From contig JAUYPI010000018.1 in assembly GCA_030697645.1 (NCBI GenBank), positions 10,457 to 74,456 of the forward strand: a stretch of DNA of 64,000 nucleotides. The letters are read 5' to 3'. Shown here piece by piece: positions 3,385 through 49,549 of this stretch. This DNA comes from a bacterium. Its GTDB lineage: Bacteria > Patescibacteriota > Minisyncoccia > Phycocordibacterales > VMGT01. The translations under genes were made by a program, and so were the position numbers. Below the pieces are notes generated by a model. It was not told the DNA's origin and did no database searches. It was given only the letters and a program-made list of their open reading frames with translations. How positions within the stretch are numbered: position 1 is the first letter of the stretch; each line of letters begins with the position of its first letter.

Positions 3385-4158
3385 TTAGGCATTGACGACA
3401 TCACTGCGTCCGGAGAAAAGCGAAGCGCGCACATTTGAGACTGTCCGGAGCTGCTCTGGCGTGTTGACGCCGAGGACTTCTTCGGGGAGCGCGGCGGGCA
3501 GGGCGAGAATAGAGCGGCCGCGCCCGGTGAGCACGCGCACGGCGTCAGTGAGATAATACTCGCCGTTTGCGCTGTTCGGCCGGAGGTTTTTGAGCGCAGA
3601 AAAGAGCGCTCGCGCACGATAGCAGTAGGCGCCCGCGTTGATCTCGCGGATCTCTCGCTCCTCCTCAGTCGCGCTTTTCTCTTCTTCAATCCGCACAACG
3701 CGGCCCGAGGCGTTCCGGACGATGCGGCCGTAGCCGGTTGGATTATCGAGGAGGGCGGTAAGAAGTGCTCCTGTCGCGCGTGCCTTTCGGTGCGCGACAA
3801 AAAGGCGCGCGAGGGTCTCGGAGCGGATAAGCGGCGTATCGCCGTAGCGGATGAGGACGTCACCGTCAAATCCTTTGAGGAGGCTCTCGGTAATGGAGAC
3901 CGCATGCCCAGTGCCGCGCTGTTCCTCCTGTCTTATAAACTCAATAGGAAGCTCCGAGTACGCACGCACGGCCCCGGCGACTGCCTCGGCCCGATAGCCG
4001 ACGACGAGAATGACGCGCTGGGGTGCGAGCGGCACAATGGCTTCGAGCACATGCGCGATCAATGGCTTGCCATCGAGTTCGTGGCAGACTTTCGGGATGT
4101 CGCCACCCATACGGGTACCTTTACCCGCCGCAAGGATTATTACTGCAAGGGAGCGCAT
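3385..4158 (-). CDS. sugar-phosphate nucleotidyltransferase (GlmU N-terminal uridyltransferase-domain-like), with no acetyltransferase LbH domain
   Basis: LAAGKGTRM nucleotide-binding motif near the N-terminus. The length fits a single NTP-transferase domain. The start is taken at the Met preceding the motif. Confidence 0.7.
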   Translation of the reverse strand: MRSLAVIILAAGKGTRMGGDIPKVCHELDGKPLIAHVLEAIVPLAPQRVILVVGYRAEAVAGAVRAYSELPIEFIRQEEQRGTGHAVSITESLLKGFDGDVLIRYGDTPLIRSETLARLFVAHRKARATGALLTALLDNPTGYGRIVRNASGRVVRIEEEKSATEEEREIREINAGAYCYRARALFSALKNLRPNSANGEYYLTDAVRVLTGRGRSILALPAALPEEVLGVNTPEQLRTVSNVRASLFSGRSDVVNA

Positions 4159-4250
4159 AGAAAATATGCACTTTCTGTAACTTCGCACGCCTGTGCGACG
4201 CTACATGCCTGGGCGCTACTCTCGCGAGCCCGCGTGAGATACAATGCTTA

Positions 4251-4430
4251 GGCCCCGTCCATAAATACCTTCCCCATCTCGCACTCACTGCACGCCCTTA
4301 TCGAGCATCGTGCTCAATCGCGAAATCCTCATCGTATCTCGATACGTCTCGGATTCGCTCATTCCGCGCCAAGCTGCATCAGGCCATGCACTGAGCACGA
4401 TATTAGGGGAACTTATTTATGGACGGGGCC
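4251..4430. mobile_element. MITE-like structured element, copy 1, with 17-bp terminal inverted repeats (GGCCCCGTCCATAAATA ... TATTTATGGACGGGGCC)
   Basis: Perfect terminal inverted repeats read directly from the sequence. The internal 145 bp is about 90% identical, in reverse orientation, to the copy at 60669-60845, and contains further internal inverted repeats. Confidence 0.75.
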
Positions 4431-4436
4431 TTACTG

Positions 4437-5300
4437 ATGTTCGTCGGCTTTAAGAAAAATATTCGCTCCTACGCACTCGTGGCGCTTTTTGCCGTGACCG
4501 TCTTTGTCTGGTACGCCGCGCTCCGCGAGGAGCGCGGCGGCGTGCTCTCCGTGGCATTCCTCGACGTAGGGCAGGGCGACGCGGCCCTGATTGAGAGCCC
4601 GACTGGCCGCCAGGTGCTCATTGACGGCGGGCCGGGGAGGAGCGTGCTCCGCGCCTTGGGGCGCACTATGCCTTTCTTCGACCGCTCGATTGACGTCGTA
4701 ATTGCAACGCACCCAGACCAGGACCACATCGGCGGGCTGCCGGAGGTGCTTGCGCGCTATCGCGTTTCGCATATCCTCGAGCCGGGCGTCGCTGCGGACA
4801 CGGCCGTGTACGGTGCGTTTGCAGAGAGCGTCCGAATCGAGGGTGCGGAACACATACTCGCACGGCGCGGGCAGAAAATCGAGCTTGGCGGCGGGGCGTA
4901 CCTCGACATTCTCTTCCCGGACCGCGACGCAGGCGGCCTCGAGACGAATACCGCCTCTGTCGTTCTAAAGCTCACCTATGGCGCGACCTCATTCCTCCTC
5001 ACCGGCGACTCGCCGAAGCAAATCGAGGAATACCTCGCGGCGCTCGACGGCGAAGCGCTCGACGTTGACGTCCTAAAGGCCGGGCACCATGGCTCGAAGA
5101 CGTCGACGTCAGACTACCTCCTCGGCCTTGCCTCGCCTGCCTATGCCGTGATCTCGGCCGGGCATGACAACCGCTACGGCCATCCGCACCGGGAGGTGCT
5201 CGACGCACTGGCACGTTTCGGAGTCAAGCCCCTCGGCACGTATGAGCGAGGCACCATCATTTTTGAGAGCGACGGCAGGGAGGTGCGGCTGAAGAAATAG
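4437..5300 (+). CDS. ComEC/Rec2-family metallo-beta-lactamase domain protein (competence-related), with a single N-terminal TM
   Basis: VAFLDVGQGDAALIE, HPDQDHIGG and KAGHHGSKTSTS motifs match the ComEC C-terminal MBL domain. The ORF-track start at 4419 lies inside the terminal repeat of the upstream element, so the next ATG is used. Confidence 0.8.
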   Translation: MFVGFKKNIRSYALVALFAVTVFVWYAALREERGGVLSVAFLDVGQGDAALIESPTGRQVLIDGGPGRSVLRALGRTMPFFDRSIDVVIATHPDQDHIGGLPEVLARYRVSHILEPGVAADTAVYGAFAESVRIEGAEHILARRGQKIELGGGAYLDILFPDRDAGGLETNTASVVLKLTYGATSFLLTGDSPKQIEEYLAALDGEALDVDVLKAGHHGSKTSTSDYLLGLASPAYAVISAGHDNRYGHPHREVLDALARFGVKPLGTYERGTIIFESDGREVRLKK

Positions 5301-5948: not shown

Positions 5949-6023
5949 GCGAGCGTAGTTCAGTGGTAGAACGCTGACCTGATAAGTCAGAGGTCGAAGG
6001 TTCGATTCCTTCCGCTCGCACCA
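5949..6023 (+). tRNA. tRNA-Ile (anticodon GAT), CCA encoded
   Basis: Cloverleaf: acceptor GCGAGCG/CGCTCGC, D-arm GTAGTTCAGTGGTAGAAC, anticodon stem-loop CTGAC-CTGATAA-GTCAG, T-arm GAAGGTTCGATTCCTTC, 3' ACCA. Confidence 0.85.
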
Positions 6024-6046
6024 GATAGGAAAAGTCAAAGCATTTC

Positions 6047-6929
6047 GGAAAGGCGGCGGAGCCGCACCGCTCAAAACCGCAAAAGAACCTGGAGAAAAAC
6101 ATCGGCTCGCCTGCCCGCCTCTGGAGGGAACCATATTTTAATTTTGGGGGAAGAAAATTTTTTAATCCTATGAATAAGAAGGTTACTTTTTTTATAGGTT
6201 TATTAGGATATATATTCGCGGGAATAATAGCGCGATTAGTTTTTAGTAAATCTTCTTTTTATCCAGGGTTAGGATTACAGACTGCCGACTACTCAATTGC
6301 CAATTTAGCTTTTCTATCAATTATTCCCGCGATAATTTTTGTATTGTTTTTTTTCATTTTTCATTATCTATTTAAAGATAGAGAAAATATTATTTTAAAG
6401 TCAAGCGGTTTTATTTTAGTATTTTCTTCTATCTCAATTTATATATGGCGTACACTTTTAGTTTTTGGAATAGGTAGTAATGATCTTCCTATCGATCCAA
6501 TAATAGGATTATTGGGATTTGTTGGAACGCTTACGACATTTATTTATCTCTCCTATCATTCTCTCCGTCTTTATAAAAGTAGCAGCCGTTTATGGGTAGC
6601 CGAACTGATTGCATCAATAGTTGTTTTAGTATCAGGGACTATTTTTAGTGCTTCTGAGTTGTCATATGTAGGTCTAGTCTTACTACCTGCGAGCCTCGTA
6701 TTTTTCCTATTTTCTTTTTTCACCCTACTTATTAAATCATGGAGAGAAACACATAAGTCATCATTTTTCTTCTCTATTCTTGGTCTACTCGTCATAATTT
6801 TCTCAACAGGGCTAGTTTTTGTCATTAAAGTACTTTCCGAATGTTGCCACTGATTATTAACAACTTTTAAGATGGGTCGCCGCCAAAGAAAAATTGGAAA
6901 TTGTTATCGGTGCGGCTCCGCCGCCTTTC
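6047..6929. mobile_element. AT-rich inserted segment bounded by perfect 23-bp inverted repeats (GGAAAGGCGGCGGAGCCGCACCG / CGGTGCGGCTCCGCCGCCTTTCC), 24 bp downstream of tRNA-Ile
   Basis: The inverted repeats were read directly at 6047-6069 and 6907-6929. The enclosed DNA is ~30% GC against ~60% flanking. Confidence 0.6.
6170..6853 (+). CDS. hypothetical multi-pass membrane protein (AT-rich, probably foreign)
   Basis: Six or more hydrophobic segments and Ile/Phe/Leu/Lys-rich composition. It lies inside the inverted-repeat-bounded segment. Confidence 0.55.
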   Translation: MNKKVTFFIGLLGYIFAGIIARLVFSKSSFYPGLGLQTADYSIANLAFLSIIPAIIFVLFFFIFHYLFKDRENIILKSSGFILVFSSISIYIWRTLLVFGIGSNDLPIDPIIGLLGFVGTLTTFIYLSYHSLRLYKSSSRLWVAELIASIVVLVSGTIFSASELSYVGLVLLPASLVFFLFSFFTLLIKSWRETHKSSFFFSILGLLVIIFSTGLVFVIKVLSECCH

Positions 6930-32163: not shown

Positions 32164-32199
32164 CCAGCACCACTTTTACGCTTGTAAAAGTGGTGCTGG
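32164..32199 (+). terminator. Perfect 16-bp hairpin between smpB and the tmRNA 5' end
   Basis: CCAGCACCACTTTTAC-GCTTG-GTAAAAGTGGTGCTGG. Its 3' arm runs directly into the GGGGATG acceptor of ssrA. Confidence 0.5.
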
Positions 32200-32609
32200 G
32201 GATGATTGGTCTTGACAAAAGAATACGCCCGTGAGGTGCGCAGGAGTGCTCCGACATCACTTAAAAAGGCCGGAACCAATACGTGCCAAGAACACTCTTG
32301 CACGAGCAAAGTCTATTCTTTCTCCCTATTTTGGGGTAAGCGACTTTGCTCTCGCATACGCCTAAAGCCGCGTCAGCGGTTTTCACGTCTGCGACGCTTG
32401 TTCTCTTTGACGCCCGATAAGACCGAACGAGTGTAATAAAAATTCGGACTGGAGCGCCGCGTGTCCCGCGCAGCGCTCAAGATTCTAGGGACGGCACGCT
32501 CGGTGAGATTTTGCTTGTTTCTCACTCGCCAGTGTATAAAAACAAGCTACCCTGCGTAGATGCCTCAGAGCAATTCTTTTGCACCCGGGTTCGACTCCCG
32601 GCATCTCCA
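32198..32609 (+). ncRNA. ssrA: tmRNA (transfer-messenger RNA)
   Basis: 5' GGGGATGATTGGTCTTGAC (tRNA-like domain acceptor and D-analogue), 3' GGGTTCGACTCCCGGCATCTCCA (T-arm and acceptor), with a G3.U70 wobble as in tRNA-Ala. It follows smpB. A candidate tag reading frame is GCAAAG...GCCTAA at 32306-32365. CCA is not encoded. Confidence 0.85.
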
Positions 32610-32712
32610 CTCGACTCGCCCCTCCTCGCGGAGGGGCGCGCTCGTAACGCTCGTAAAAAAACGAGGCGTTAAAAACAGCATACGTAAGTTACCCTGTCTT
32701 TTTGATGAACTT
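32605..32712 (+). repeat. Direct repeat copy 1 (about 107 bp): the last few nt of ssrA plus the downstream terminator region
   Basis: CTCCACTCGACTCGCCCCTCCTCGCGGAGGGGCGCGCTCGTAACGCTCGTAAAAAAACGAGGCGTTAAAAACAGCATACGTAAGTTACCCTGTCTTTTTGATGAACTT is duplicated with one SNP at 34183-34289. Confidence 0.85.
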
Positions 32713-45905: not shown

Positions 45906-46838
45906 TTATTGCCTCCCCCGCGCAAACACTGCTGCTGCGGCGCCTAAAAGCCCGGCATCGTCGCCAAGCGGCGTTCGTTGAATCTTTGGCAACGCAAGGT
46001 AGCGATCTGCATATTTCTTTATCCCCGCAAGAATAGTGGGGTTCTGGAGTGCCACCGACCCTCCGAGCGTGATTATTTCGGGATCGTACGCAACGATACA
46101 ATTAGAGATTGCGCGTCCGTTAATCCTATGCAGCTCTTCGAGAAAACGGCGTGAAAGACTCTCGCCCGCGCGAGCTCTCTCGAACAAATCCTTGGAGTCG
46201 GTCGGCTCAAAGTCAGTTCTACATCCATTGGCTTTCGTCCACGCTTCGAAAAATCTCGGGATGTTCCGTCCGGACGCATAGCCCTCCCAATGCCCGGCTC
46301 CCGTGCCGCAGGTACAGGGAAGATTAAGAGCGGTGTCAATGACCATGTGGCCCACTTCAGCCGCGTTGCCGCTTCTCCCGAGCACAAGTCTCCCATCAAC
46401 GAGCGCCCCAGCGCCAATGCCGGTTGAGATTGTTATATACAGAATGTTCTTGCGCCGTCGGCCTGCACCAAACCGCTGCTCCCCCAAAACCGCAGCATTA
46501 CAGTCGTTCAATAATACAACGGGCAGGTTGAATCTTTTTGAGAGCGGGGCCACCAGTGGCACAAAAGCAAATGGAATGTTGGGCGAGGAGAGCGGGCCTC
46601 CGCGCCTGTAATCGAGGGGGCCCATTGAAGATACACCGACGCCGAGAATGGGGATGCGTCTGTGCTTCGACGCGACTGACTCGAGCATCGCCGCAATTTT
46701 TTGAGGAATAACACCAGGTGTTTTTCCGTGCCGCGGCGTGTTAACTTTTAGTCTCTCAATAATCCGCCCGTCGGAGCATATAAGCCCGACCCGAACGTTC
46801 GTTGCCCCGAGATCAACCGCAAACGCATACGTTTTCAT
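45906..46838 (-). CDS. ROK-family sugar kinase (glucokinase / N-acetylglucosamine kinase-like)
   Basis: N-terminal DLGATNVRVGL ATP-binding motif, ROK Cys/His zinc motif (CTCGTGAGHWE), and GIGAG. Confidence 0.85.
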   Translation of the reverse strand: MKTYAFAVDLGATNVRVGLICSDGRIIERLKVNTPRHGKTPGVIPQKIAAMLESVASKHRRIPILGVGVSSMGPLDYRRGGPLSSPNIPFAFVPLVAPLSKRFNLPVVLLNDCNAAVLGEQRFGAGRRRKNILYITISTGIGAGALVDGRLVLGRSGNAAEVGHMVIDTALNLPCTCGTGAGHWEGYASGRNIPRFFEAWTKANGCRTDFEPTDSKDLFERARAGESLSRRFLEELHRINGRAISNCIVAYDPEIITLGGSVALQNPTILAGIKKYADRYLALPKIQRTPLGDDAGLLGAAAAVFARGRQ

Positions 46839-47041
46839 GGCACTGATTGCAACGACATTCAGTCCTTAGAAGATACAAACTGTCCTGGGCCGCACGGGCG
46901 TCTCTCTCTGGCCGAGCGGAGATGATTTATCGGGGGGACATAGTGAGGGGCATTTTGTGCCTTCCACAAAATGGTTATCCCCAGCTCATCGCTGCTATCT
47001 TACAGGTTACCATGTGATAAATTTAAGTCACCAGTGATGCT

Positions 47042-47377
47042 ATGCCCAAAGGTAAACCAATTTCAGGTGGAGGTGGTGGTATGCCTGCCGACGATGCATA
47101 CATGACGAAACGTGGCTGGGACAAGGGTCTCAGGCGTGATATTGCAGCGCTTCCGCGTCGAGATCGTGCACGCATTGAAGCCATGAAAGACGCAGGACAA
47201 TTGCTCGATTCGGACTATGCACGAGGCGGCGTATTCGGTCCAATAAAACGTGATGTTATCACCGGAAAAGAAGCAAAAACATTTATAGAGGGTATAGAGA
47301 AAAATCGCGCAACGTTGGGGTTGTCAGGGCGGTCAGTCGACGCTCTTAAAAATGCTTTTAAAAAACGAATGAGGTAG
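47042..47377 (+). CDS. hypothetical small basic protein
   Basis: ORF with a Gly-rich N-terminus, followed by a strong bidirectional terminator. Confidence 0.45.
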   Translation: MPKGKPISGGGGGMPADDAYMTKRGWDKGLRRDIAALPRRDRARIEAMKDAGQLLDSDYARGGVFGPIKRDVITGKEAKTFIEGIEKNRATLGLSGRSVDALKNAFKKRMR

Positions 47378-47438
47378 TGGAGAAGTAAGCGTTTTCTGCT
47401 CGCGTGGGGCTCGATAAAGCGCAAAGTTAATTACAGCA

Positions 47439-47482
47439 CCAAACAAAACCGTCCTGTCTGAAGCAGGACGGTTTTGTTTGGT
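47439..47482. terminator. bidirectional rho-independent terminator
   Basis: CCAAACAAAACCGTCCTG-TCTGAAG-CAGGACGGTTTTGTTTGG, a perfect 18-bp stem. Its 3' end abuts the tRNA-Leu 3' CCA. Confidence 0.8.
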
Positions 47483-47565
47483 GCCCAGGAGAGGATTTGA
47501 ACCTCCACGGGATTGCTCCCATACGCCCCTCAAGCGTACGCGTAAACCAGTTCCGCCACCTGGGC
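47479..47565 (-). tRNA. tRNA-Leu (anticodon GAG), long variable arm, CCA encoded
   Basis: Minus strand: acceptor GCCCAGG/CCTGGGC, anticodon stem-loop TACGC-TTGAGGG-GCGTA, variable arm TGGGAGCAATCCCGT, T-arm GGAGGTTCAAATCCTCT, 3' ACCA. Confidence 0.85.
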
Positions 47566-48270
47566 ATTTTTATTGTGGGTCTCATTTATGGAAAATATTT
47601 TTTGCGCTTTGACGAATTTTCTTTCTAGACAAGGAAGGCCTGTCGCATAGTACATGCGTTCAAAAAGAGCGAGGGATTCTCTTTTGGCGTATCGCAGTTG
47701 TAACACGCGCGAACCCTGACCTATTCGACCCCGTACGCCCACTAACCTCCGCGAGGTTTGTTGCAACCACTCTAAAAATGGGCGGCTTGCCGACACAAAC
47801 GAAAGATAAAACACGTAGCTGCTATGCCAACGTGGATCCCAATATGCATAGATGCTGCCGTCCCCATCAAAACATCCACGCAAAAAATCAAAAAAGAACT
47901 GGTCTGGAACCGCGAGCGCGCCGATGGTCTTGGATTTATTGGGGGTTAACCCAATGCCCTGCAACCAATGATAAAAACTAACATCTCCGAATTGAACCTT
48001 GTAATACTCCTTTTGATCCCCGCGACCACTATAACCCGTTCCTATTTTAATCCTTTGCAGCCCAAGAATATTTTTGAACGTTTCAAGCTGGTCCTTGTCT
48101 TTTGATACAAGAATTATATGTCGACCGCTTTTTGACAGGCTGCCGTCTGTTGCGATCAGGCCAACAGCGTAGGCCATTTTTTCTGACCACTCAATCGAAG
48201 ACGGATCGCGAGGTTTTGGCCCTCTCTTTCCCATCACTCTAGTATACCCTGTATACCAATTAGTAGACAA
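47530..48270 (-). CDS. LAGLIDADG-family homing endonuclease (double-motif, free-standing). Its 3' end overlaps the first ~35 nt of tRNA-Leu
   Basis: Two LAGLIDADG motifs, LIATDGSL and FDGDGSI, about 100 aa apart. Lower-GC gene between rplS and tRNA-Leu. Confidence 0.8.
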   Translation of the reverse strand: MSTNWYTGYTRVMGKRGPKPRDPSSIEWSEKMAYAVGLIATDGSLSKSGRHIILVSKDKDQLETFKNILGLQRIKIGTGYSGRGDQKEYYKVQFGDVSFYHWLQGIGLTPNKSKTIGALAVPDQFFFDFLRGCFDGDGSIYAYWDPRWHSSYVFYLSFVSASRPFLEWLQQTSRRLVGVRGRIGQGSRVLQLRYAKRESLALFERMYYATGLPCLERKFVKAQKIFSINETHNKNAQVAELVYAYA

Positions 48271-48305
48271 CCCAACAGCAAAGAAAGGGAAGCAGTGCGG
48301 ACCCG

Positions 48306-48737
48306 TTACCCGGCAACAACATTACTACCCTCCTGTTGGTCGCTCACCTCGACCGGCTTCGGTGTATCGTCCTCCGTCGTCCGGTATTCGAGCCTGCTGC
48401 GGCGGAGCTGGCGGCGCGCTTCTCTCGCCGCTCTCTCGCGGATGTAGCCAAGCTTCGCGCGGCGCACCTTCGCGCGCTTCACAATCTCGATTTTGGCGAT
48501 GACCGGCGAGTGGAGGGGAAAAATGCGCTCGACGCCGACGCCGCTTGCGACGCGCCGCACTGTAAATGTCGCGCCGATCTCACTCCCATGCCGCACGCCG
48601 AGCACGAGCCCCTCGAAGAGCTGCACCCGCGTCTTGCCCTTTTCTTGTATTTTCTGCGAGACGCGCACCGTGTCCCCGGGCCGAATGCCGAGCTTAGCGC
48701 GCGCTGCCCTATTCACCGGCGTAAAAACAATTGCCAT
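48306..48737 (-). CDS. rplS: 50S ribosomal protein L19 with a ~40-aa C-terminal extension
   Basis: [31 protein letters not shown] core of bL19. The start is taken at MAIVFTPV. Confidence 0.85.
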
Positions 48738-48778
48738 TAGACAAGACGATACCATGACGTCTCGCGGGGCGCAATGCA

Positions 48779-49549
48779 CTATGACGCCCGCATGCCGTCG
48801 AGTAGTACGAGCGCCCGCTCGAAATCCTCCGGCAGTGGCGCCTCGAGTGTGAGACGCACGAGAGAGGGCATAACGAGCGAGAGTTGCCGTGCATGGAGCG
48901 CAAGGCGCGTGAAGCCGAGCGCGCAGGCTCGGGCGGATGCGTACCGACGGTCACACACAACGGGGTGCCCAATTGCCTTGAAATGAACACGGATCTGATG
49001 CGTCCGGCCAGTCTTCGGCCGCACCTCGAGAAAAGAAAAGCCCCCCGCAGTCTCAAGCACGCGATACTCGGTCAGTGCGTCGCGAAGTTTCCCGCGCGCC
49101 CCTCGCTCCGCAGAAAACTTTCTAAAATCGTTCCGACTCCGGCCGATTGAAGCCGTAATCGTGCCAGAATGCTCGTGCGGCACACCATAAAGAAACGCAT
49201 TATATGTCTTACTCACCTCGCGCGCTTGAAATGCGTGTTTCAAATACGCAAACATCTCCTGTGTTTTTGCGATAAGCACTACACCAGAGGTCTCCCGATC
49301 AAGTCGGTGCACGATCCCCGGGCGCGCGAGCACGCTTCCGTCGGCGAGCCGCATCGGCTCGCCGACCCCCTCGATCGCCGGATAATGCTCCGTGGCCCAG
49401 TCGGCAACCGTGCCGCCTGCTTCCTTATCGCTCGCATGTATCAAAACACCTGCTGGTTTATTGATACCTATGAGCACGTCATCTTCGTATATAACAGTAA
49501 TTGTTCCCGCCATGTAGTTATCTGCCATGACGCCTCGTGCGCTCGGCAT
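48779..49549 (-). CDS. RluA-family pseudouridine synthase (RluD/RluC-like)
   Basis: Catalytic [12 protein letters not shown] motif and the RluA-family core ([18 protein letters not shown]). Confidence 0.85.

Follow-up and report, generated by a model that had tools for sequence, protein, structure and literature searches.

A free-standing LAGLIDADG endonuclease gene at the 5′ end of tRNA-Leu(GAG) in Patescibacteria: a candidate for intronless homing at a tRNA gene

The stretch analyzed here, hereafter the window, comprises 64,000 nucleotides (nt) of contig JAUYPI010000018.1 from a patescibacterial genome assembly (GCA_030697645.1). On its reverse strand lies the gene of a LAGLIDADG homing endonuclease (47530..48234), a single chain with two motifs that is assigned by PF14528 and by identity to a database protein, P0001. 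The gene is lodged between rplS, which encodes ribosomal protein L19 and forms the conserved upstream flank (48306..48779, reverse strand; Pfam Ribosomal_L19, E=1.8e-33), and an intact tRNA-Leu(GAG) gene, which forms the right flank and is the probable target (47479..47565, reverse strand; ARAGORN; Rfam tRNA, 51.8 bits). Only 71 nt separate the end of rplS at 48306 from the ATG at 48234. In the program-made list of open reading frames (ORFs) the gene is read from a TTG, spanning 47530..48270 on the reverse strand and encoding 246 amino acids, the length given in a preliminary description made from the sequence letters. That frame exists, but the ATG at 48234 is probably the true start, giving 234 residues and a stop, because the identical protein P0001 has 234 residues, the N-terminal MGKRGPKP is conserved, and a -10 box lies 6 nt upstream.

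The encoded protein contains both of the LAGLIDADG motifs that had been reported, GLIATDGSL (GLIATDG, with D42) and FDGDGSI (FDGDG, with D137), and matches LAGLIDADG_3 (PF14528) above the Pfam cutoff (E=1.1e-8); Pfam found no further domain in it, DNA-binding domains included. Its closest solved relative by sequence is I-Tsp061I (2dch, E=2.3e-7). An AlphaFold2 model built with 23 homologs reached a predicted local distance difference test (pLDDT) score of 87.3 and a predicted template modeling (pTM) score of 0.82, and features two alpha-beta-beta-alpha-beta-beta-alpha repeats, with low confidence at residues 1-20 and in the last ~15 residues, the tail encoded by the tRNA. Foldseek ranked I-Tsp061I first for this model (E=5.7e-13) and WhiA second, followed by intein endonucleases, I-SceI and I-DmoI, and the modeled protein can be assigned confidently to the LAGLIDADG fold. 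Residues D42, G43, D137, G138, K112 and R131 are invariant in all 78 family copies examined, every one of which also has an intact reading frame. The ORF thus has the appearance of an intact, active single-chain LAGLIDADG homing endonuclease, for which cleavage is predicted. Its GC content (0.45-0.48) is lower than that of the rplS side (0.59-0.65), as the preliminary description had stated for the neighbors in general, but not lower than that of the opposite side (0.46-0.48). An intein-associated endonuclease was considered and rejected: LAGLIDADG_3 is the only domain found by Pfam, and the gene has its own ATG behind a promoter-like element. One family member, P0018, carries the public label 'Intein-containing protein'; the family has no host protein or splicing domain, and the label appears to be an annotation artefact.

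A protein search returned 2,125 clusters (90% identity) at E<=1e-3, mostly from Parcubacteria/Patescibacteria, and at least 383 species-level genomes encode a relative. We compared 80 loci from species-level genomes, picked by protein similarity, a choice that favors intact copies; the identity of the homing endonuclease genes (HEGs) among homologous loci is 45-68%. In 76 of the 80, the ORF stops close to a tRNA-Leu gene, at -34 to +47 nt relative to its 5′ end; the anticodon of this tRNA is GAG in 73 cases, CAG in two and AAG in one. Upstream of the HEG, rplS is present in 68 of 81 loci and a gene for an RluA-type pseudouridine synthase in 54; the downstream genes are not conserved among loci. 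These comparisons place the window gene within a large patescibacterial family whose single chromosomal slot is the interval between rplS and tRNA-Leu(GAG). At two loci, rplS and the HEG are separated by an additional ~1-2 kb (L013:3061-4028 and L037:2071-4055).

The preliminary description placed the ORF immediately upstream of the tRNA, where it does adjoin it, and overlooked that a conserved 5′ fragment of the tRNA also stands on the far side of the ORF. In the window this degenerate tRNA-Leu-like 5′ fragment (48235..48261, reverse strand) reads AATTGGTATAC-AGGG-TATACT-AGAGTG directly before the ATG; AATTGGTATAC corresponds to the D-loop and AGAGTG is a remnant of the anticodon loop TTGAGGT, degenerate and in register. 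When the 70 nt upstream of the start were compared, ~65 of 74 loci carried the consensus AAT-TGGTAGACGC-TATTACC-TTGAGGT(G), whose successive parts correspond to the D-loop, the 5′ strand of the anticodon stem and the anticodon loop of tRNA-Leu(GAG). In most loci, local alignment matches the fragment to positions 13/14 to 37-40 of the tRNA at the same locus, and the T-run of the rplS terminator often precedes it. Two length classes occur. The long class has a TGGTA motif that starts 38-41 nt before the ATG, then (TG)ATATAAT and 6 nt; in the short class, which includes the window, the motif starts 24 nt before the start codon, which comes immediately after the anticodon-loop remnant. No second HEG copy and no further tRNA fragments were found in the window.

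In both classes the fragment overlaps the core promoter. The promoter scan of the window identified, on the reverse strand, a -35-like hexamer TTGTCT (48265..48270), which contains the TTG taken as the ORF start, an 18-nt spacer, and a -10 hexamer TATACT (48241..48246) 6 nt before the start codon, with 9 of 12 matches in total. Hexamers that agree with TATAAT in at least five of six positions have their end exactly 6 nt from the start codon in 46 of 74 loci and 7 nt from it in five more, where the chance expectation for such a hexamer is 0.39 per position. The HEG is therefore predicted to have its own promoter-like expression element within the intergenic slot. Because the -10 box ends 6 nt before the ATG, and given the usual spacing between a -10 box and the transcription start, the HEG mRNA would be leaderless or nearly so.

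The fragments resemble each other closely: their pairwise identity is 0.74, whereas the 24 nt immediately upstream reach 0.42 and the corresponding segments of the functional tRNAs 0.69. Moreover, the spacing from GACGC to TTGAG is 7 nt in 63 of 65 fragments and 6 nt in real tRNAs. This identity and the shared extra base indicate that the fragments have a common origin and are under selection, rather than being independent, decaying leftovers. A fresh origin of the fragment from each resident tRNA was rejected for most loci, since the fragments are closer to each other than to the local tRNA and all but two of the 65 share the extra base. The fragments of L059 and L014 also keep an acceptor-stem-like part, and these two may be younger insertions. 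On the other side of the element, a remnant of the tRNA 3′ half downstream of the intact tRNA, such as a cassette with an entire tRNA or an att repeat would leave, is generally absent (median z=-0.1). Sequences resembling the 3′ half (z 4.7-7.8) occur within 300 nt downstream of the tRNA in five loci only (L036, L049, L056, L070 and L080), where they may be att-like repeats of other elements.

Where family members adjoin other tRNA genes, the fragment differs accordingly. Beside tRNA-Leu(CAG) (L076 and L079) the fragment loop reads CTCAG rather than TTGAG, and these CAG copies are mutual nearest relatives (60% identity, against about 50%). Two loci hold a second family copy directly 5′ of tRNA-Phe(GAA), each with a Phe-type D-arm piece upstream: CTCGGTGGTAG in L008, where the copy (4137-4918) is intact and the tRNA intron-free, and AGCTCAGTGGTAG in L063. 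The Phe-type copies are likewise mutual nearest relatives, at 54% identity against 41-47% to the Leu-type copies. Such tracking of the neighboring tRNA by fragments and subclades is expected if the enzyme recognizes the tRNA gene and lineages have changed target. In L063 (4902-5866), the tRNA-Phe was missed by ARAGORN, and its anticodon loop is interrupted by a group I intron (Rfam, 70.5 bits, E=2.5e-17); the HEG of this locus lies outside the intron. In L039, two short pieces of family ORFs (6004-6252 and 6448-6693; span 6004-6746) precede a tRNA-Phe and look like a broken copy.

At its 3′ end, the window ORF runs into the tRNA-Leu(GAG), which both ARAGORN and Rfam return as uninterrupted. 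The overlap amounts to 36 nt including the stop (47530..47565, reverse strand), in line with the ~35 nt of the preliminary description, so that the last 11 codons and the TGA correspond to tRNA positions 1-36. The TGA coincides with U33-G34-A35 of the anticodon loop, that is, with U33 and the first two anticodon bases; as a GAN anticodon follows U33, any ORF that enters the tRNA in that frame must stop there. An overlap of +36 is also the commonest value in the family, shared by 27 loci. The conserved C-terminal Arg-Lys lies 39 to 80 nt from tRNA +1, with all three frames represented (39, 23 and 16 loci), and among the aligned proteins many homologs of 55-65% identity have a C-terminal tail like AQV-EL/KLV, which is the coding of the tRNA-Leu 5′ end. 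With no 3′ untranslated region and a variable frame, the position of the stop, and hence the overlap, would be set by the frame; the overlap is best read as a by-product of the reading frame, and the tail as lying outside the conserved part of the protein. In one subfamily, a TTGACA(A/G)A motif is conserved 8-9 nt 5′ of tRNA +1, being coding in some loci and non-coding in others; it is carried, 8-14 nt before tRNA +1, by L025, L027, L033, L034, L037, L045, L048-L050, L053, L057, L065, L070, L078 and L114.

The terminator described at the 3′ end of the tRNA as a perfect 18-bp hairpin is real, but its stem measures 22 bp and takes in the last 7 nt of the tRNA, GGCACCA (47435..47485; RNA fold -39.4 kcal/mol, z=-8.9; matched on the forward strand in the terminator scan). 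In the precursor, pairing of the hairpin with the tRNA 3′ end would be in competition with the acceptor stem. The hairpin serves both convergent transcription units, including the gene at 47042-47377 on the forward strand, a 111-residue ORF that converges on the tRNA and has no Pfam match at E<=0.1.

The preliminary description had suggested looking in related genomes for the same tRNA-Leu without the ORF, and such empty rplS/tRNA-Leu junctions exist. For this comparison, loci were picked by their L19 protein and not by the HEG. The loci with the L19 closest to that of the window, L081 and L082 (96% and 95% identity), are empty: ~51 nt separate rplS from a tRNA-Leu(GAG) that is 93% identical to the window's. 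L083 and L084 (L19 identity 91%) are occupied, with a HEG 69% identical to that of the window. Empty junctions are found again in L085 (84%; ~66 nt between rplS and tRNA), in L088 (76%), where the synteny differs, in L089 (70%; 40 nt), and in L086 and L087 (67%; 11 nt). A metagenome scan used a pattern from the 3′ two-thirds of the tRNA, which leaves the 5′ side unbiased; its rplS-linked matches comprise three occupied sites (L104, L114 and L183) and ~8 empty ones. L108 and L109 are likewise empty. None of ~100 tRNA-Leu(GAG) loci without rplS upstream, probably from other phyla, is occupied. Overall, about a quarter of the sampled rplS/tRNA-Leu junctions hold the gene. When empty and occupied alleles are aligned, similarity picks up exactly at tRNA position +1. 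We do not claim that occupied alleles have lost the tRNA's own promoter: among empty alleles, 5 of 14 have a -10 box 4-16 nt before +1, and among occupied ones 13 of 82 (p=0.13). In L081, a large serine recombinase gene (3519-5132; Resolvase, Recombinase and Zn_ribbon_recom domains) overlaps or adjoins the tRNA-Leu(GAG) (3539-3625) on the opposite strand, and may belong to a different mobile element that uses this tRNA.

The history of the gene can be set against that of its neighbors. Over 66 loci, mean identity is 53% for the HEG, 49% for L19 and 44% for RluA. Identity in the HEG is weakly correlated with identity in L19 or RluA (rho 0.24-0.32), while L19 and RluA correlate at rho 0.60, all values being computed from identities; discordant close pairs of loci also occur. 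This weak correlation with host genes, together with the sporadic presence of the gene and its intact catalytic residues, fits a gene that is selected for its own activity and swapped between lineages, rather than a vertically inherited host gene.

Our favored explanation, to which we give a probability of roughly 70%, is that the element is a mobile, free-standing HEG whose target is the tRNA gene itself. In order, the element would comprise a conserved pseudo-5′-part of the tRNA, its own promoter, the ORF, and then the intact tRNA. The enzyme would cut element-free tRNA-Leu(GAG) genes within the region from D-loop to anticodon stem that the fragment mimics; the break would then be repaired from an occupied allele, with rplS and the fragment providing homology on the left and the tRNA on the right, and the gene would be copied in, by intronless homing. 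Because the duplicated 5′ part leaves a complete tRNA, no splicing would be required. The anatomy and promoter geometry, the linkage across the family, the patchy presence with empty sites, and the conservation of fragment and catalytic residues are observed; from them we infer cleavage, the position of the target, the role of the fragment (as homology arm and/or operator) and mobility by homing. The preliminary description had proposed a free-standing enzyme that targets the rplS/tRNA-Leu junction. Its free-standing nature is upheld by the lack of a ribozyme match and by the promoter-like element, but the proposed target is not: with a 5′ fragment of the tRNA beyond the start of the ORF, the tRNA gene is indicated as the target rather than the spacer between rplS and tRNA.

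Several observations weigh against homing into the tRNA gene. It is solely the fragment that suggests the tRNA as the target, and a target within the tRNA would persist in the intact tRNA of occupied alleles, which leaves immunity unexplained. The sole hint of immunity is that the match to fragment-derived sequence has a median of 18 of 31 positions in empty-site tRNAs and 15 of 31 in HEG-linked tRNAs (p=0.03, n=14, by a statistic that ignores phylogeny); the empty site of L086 matches at 31/31. The tRNA 5′ half shows no co-variation with the HEG (partial rho 0.035, p=0.2), while the 3′ half gives a partial rho of 0.166 (p=0.013), in a weak test on short, saturated segments; the former result lends no support to co-conversion or to an element that carries the tRNA 5′ half. 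The estimate of occupancy draws on ~18 independent loci. Finally, no decaying copies were seen at the tRNA-Leu site among the 80 similarity-picked loci, which is unusual for a purely selfish gene. An element that carries the tRNA 5′ half is therefore not claimed, as the co-variation with the HEG that it predicts was not seen; the duplication stands as an observation, and the element-borne copy is left unassigned.

A more elaborate form of homing into the tRNA gene is offered tentatively, and we consider it doubtful as a whole. The fragment would be an uncleavable pseudo-5′-half, shifted by one base, that serves at once as homology arm, part of the promoter and operator for self-repression; the extra base would be expected to make the fragment itself uncleavable. 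The run of the ORF into the tRNA would let RNase P strip off the stop codon, so that most of the mRNA would be non-stop and cleared by transfer-messenger RNA (tmRNA), a brake on a potentially toxic nuclease. The sister lineages would have been retargeted to tRNA-Leu(CAG) and tRNA-Phe, each with a matching pseudo-fragment. The window contains a tmRNA gene (32198-32612) with a long predicted tag peptide, AKNTLARAKSILSPYFGVSDFALAYA, an observation that bears only on the non-stop mRNA idea.

Three other explanations have to be weighed against a mobile endonuclease gene targeting the tRNA. The protein could be a domesticated LAGLIDADG protein, immobile and with a host function at the rplS/tRNA-Leu locus, such as a WhiA-like regulator acting on the fragment at its own promoter. 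Its strong conservation (the mean identity of 53% exceeds that of L19), the intact frames of all 78 copies, the fixed chromosomal slot, the overlap of fragment and promoter, as expected of an operator, and the rank of WhiA as second-best structural match all fit this idea. WhiA, to our knowledge, lacks the catalytic Asp residues, however, and here both are invariant. A host function also sits poorly with a gene that is missing in the closest relatives and at about three quarters of the junctions sampled, with HEG divergence that is decoupled from that of host genes, with sister lineages at other tRNAs, and with the failure of Pfam to find an extra DNA-binding domain in the protein; we regard domestication as unlikely. 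Less likely still is that the gene belongs to an integrase-type element inserted in the tRNA gene, as remnant or cargo, with the fragment as an att-like repeat and the endonuclease as a passenger. tRNA genes are well-known sites of integration, a gene for a large serine recombinase stands beside the same tRNA in L081, and a few loci have 3′-half-like repeats downstream. Yet the duplicated piece is the 5′ part of the tRNA and lies less than 40 nt from the ORF, 3′ repeats are not general, no recombinase family recurs in the 80 loci, and the unit measures only ~0.75 kb, so that the chance of this explanation being correct seems very slim.

An intron-encoded endonuclease was rejected for the window itself, where no ribozyme model matches, the tRNA is contiguous, and no spare sequence is left between fragment, ORF and tRNA. 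Across 46500-49500, the Rfam group I and group II models have no match at E<=10, the search returning the tRNA and sub-threshold noise only, which bears out the earlier statement that the tRNA is contiguous and no intron is obvious. The relic of an intron, which the preliminary description had raised as its alternative, can now be considered at most as a remote origin. It would suppose that the gene once resided in an ancestral group I intron, inserted in the tRNA-Leu anticodon loop, that the ribozyme was lost, and that duplication of exon 1 restored the tRNA. Such a history would account for a fragment that ends at about tRNA position 38/39, beside the classical anticodon-loop intron sites; in addition, patescibacterial tRNAs carry group I introns (PMC13011429), the sister copy of L063 adjoins a tRNA-Phe with such an intron, and the closest solved structure is intron-encoded. 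Against it stand the absence of ribozyme signal and the lack of room, with only ~0-15 nt between fragment and ATG and none between ORF and tRNA. The HEG of L063, moreover, lies outside the intron, and the endonucleases reported from patescibacterial tRNA introns are of the HNH family, not LAGLIDADG (PMC13011429). An intron relic is thus improbable, and would concern only a remote origin.

The common view is that homing endonucleases depend on an intron or intein for residing within essential genes; this family uses a partial tRNA duplicate instead. Its genes are mostly annotated as 'hypothetical' or, wrongly, as 'intein-containing', and the tRNA-like fragment is left unannotated. If the tRNA is indeed the target, the family would provide a natural intermediate for models of the union of endonucleases and introns, with L063 holding both at one tRNA. 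It would also offer diverged LAGLIDADG scaffolds whose specificities are related yet shifted (Leu-GAG, Leu-CAG and Phe-GAA) for the study of specificity evolution, and it would constitute evidence of DNA exchange among Patescibacteria.

In the literature searched, with most subscription journals beyond reach, we found no account of free-standing LAGLIDADG genes at tRNA 5′ ends in Patescibacteria, nor of the tRNA-like fragment. The enzyme family and free-standing homing in general are already known; the architecture and its spread in the phylum appear to be new. Intronless homing by free-standing endonucleases is known from the seg and mob genes of phage T4 (PMC3984707), and SegB is located in the tRNA gene cluster of T-even phages (PMC13096335). 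Like seg and mob, the window gene is a stand-alone ORF with a promoter of its own, occupies an intergenic slot, is sporadic among relatives, and has an adjacent conserved gene as its presumed target. The T4 genes are phage-borne and encode GIY-YIG or HNH enzymes, whereas the window gene encodes a LAGLIDADG enzyme and resides in a bacterial chromosome. It is further set apart by a flank in which part of the presumed target is duplicated and conserved, and by an ORF that abuts or overlaps the tRNA.

Within the enzyme family, LAGLIDADG genes occur inside ribosomal RNA (rRNA) insertions in bacteria of the Candidate Phyla Radiation (CPR) (PMC11270868). These and I-Tsp061I, an archaeal rRNA-intron enzyme (2dch), share fold and Pfam family with the window protein, and the CPR cases come from the same phylum; unlike them, the window gene lies outside any intron or insertion and is tied to tRNA genes. 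Patescibacteria also have group I introns inside tRNAs with HNH endonucleases (10.1101/2025.07.03.662931; PMC13011429). In collaborative homing, a free-standing endonuclease and an ORF-less intron share one site, as in cyanophage psbA and T4 mobE/I-TevIII (PMC3984707, PMC2790892). The free-standing endonuclease and the intron at the single tRNA-Phe of L063 resemble this arrangement, and the intron there could interrupt the target of the enzyme. The tRNA-Leu of the window differs in having no intron, so that immunity is not explained in that way.

The overlap of a target-like sequence with the promoter of the endonuclease gene, where it may act as an operator, recalls the autorepression of I-TevI, although the enzyme families differ. 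Edgell and colleagues are said to have reported in 2004 that I-TevI represses itself at an operator resembling its homing site. The nearest precedent for the locus as a whole is provided by endonuclease insertions in organellar rps3 and atp6, which are in-frame fusions with 3′-end duplications. In Allomyces atp6, as Paquin and colleagues reportedly described in 1994, an endonuclease gene entered the host gene along with a second copy of the end that it displaced. In Ophiostoma, LAGLIDADG genes are fused to mitochondrial rps3, according to the passage of PMC7902536 that cites Gibb and Hausner (2005) and Sethuraman et al. (2009). As in the rps3 and atp6 cases, the element of the window would lie inside its target gene without an intron or intein, leaving one full copy of the gene and a leftover partial copy. 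Those hosts are protein-coding genes, joined in frame to the endonuclease and duplicated at their 3′ end, whereas the host proposed here is a tRNA gene of which the 5′ part is duplicated, and the leftover copy is conserved and overlaps the promoter of the endonuclease gene.

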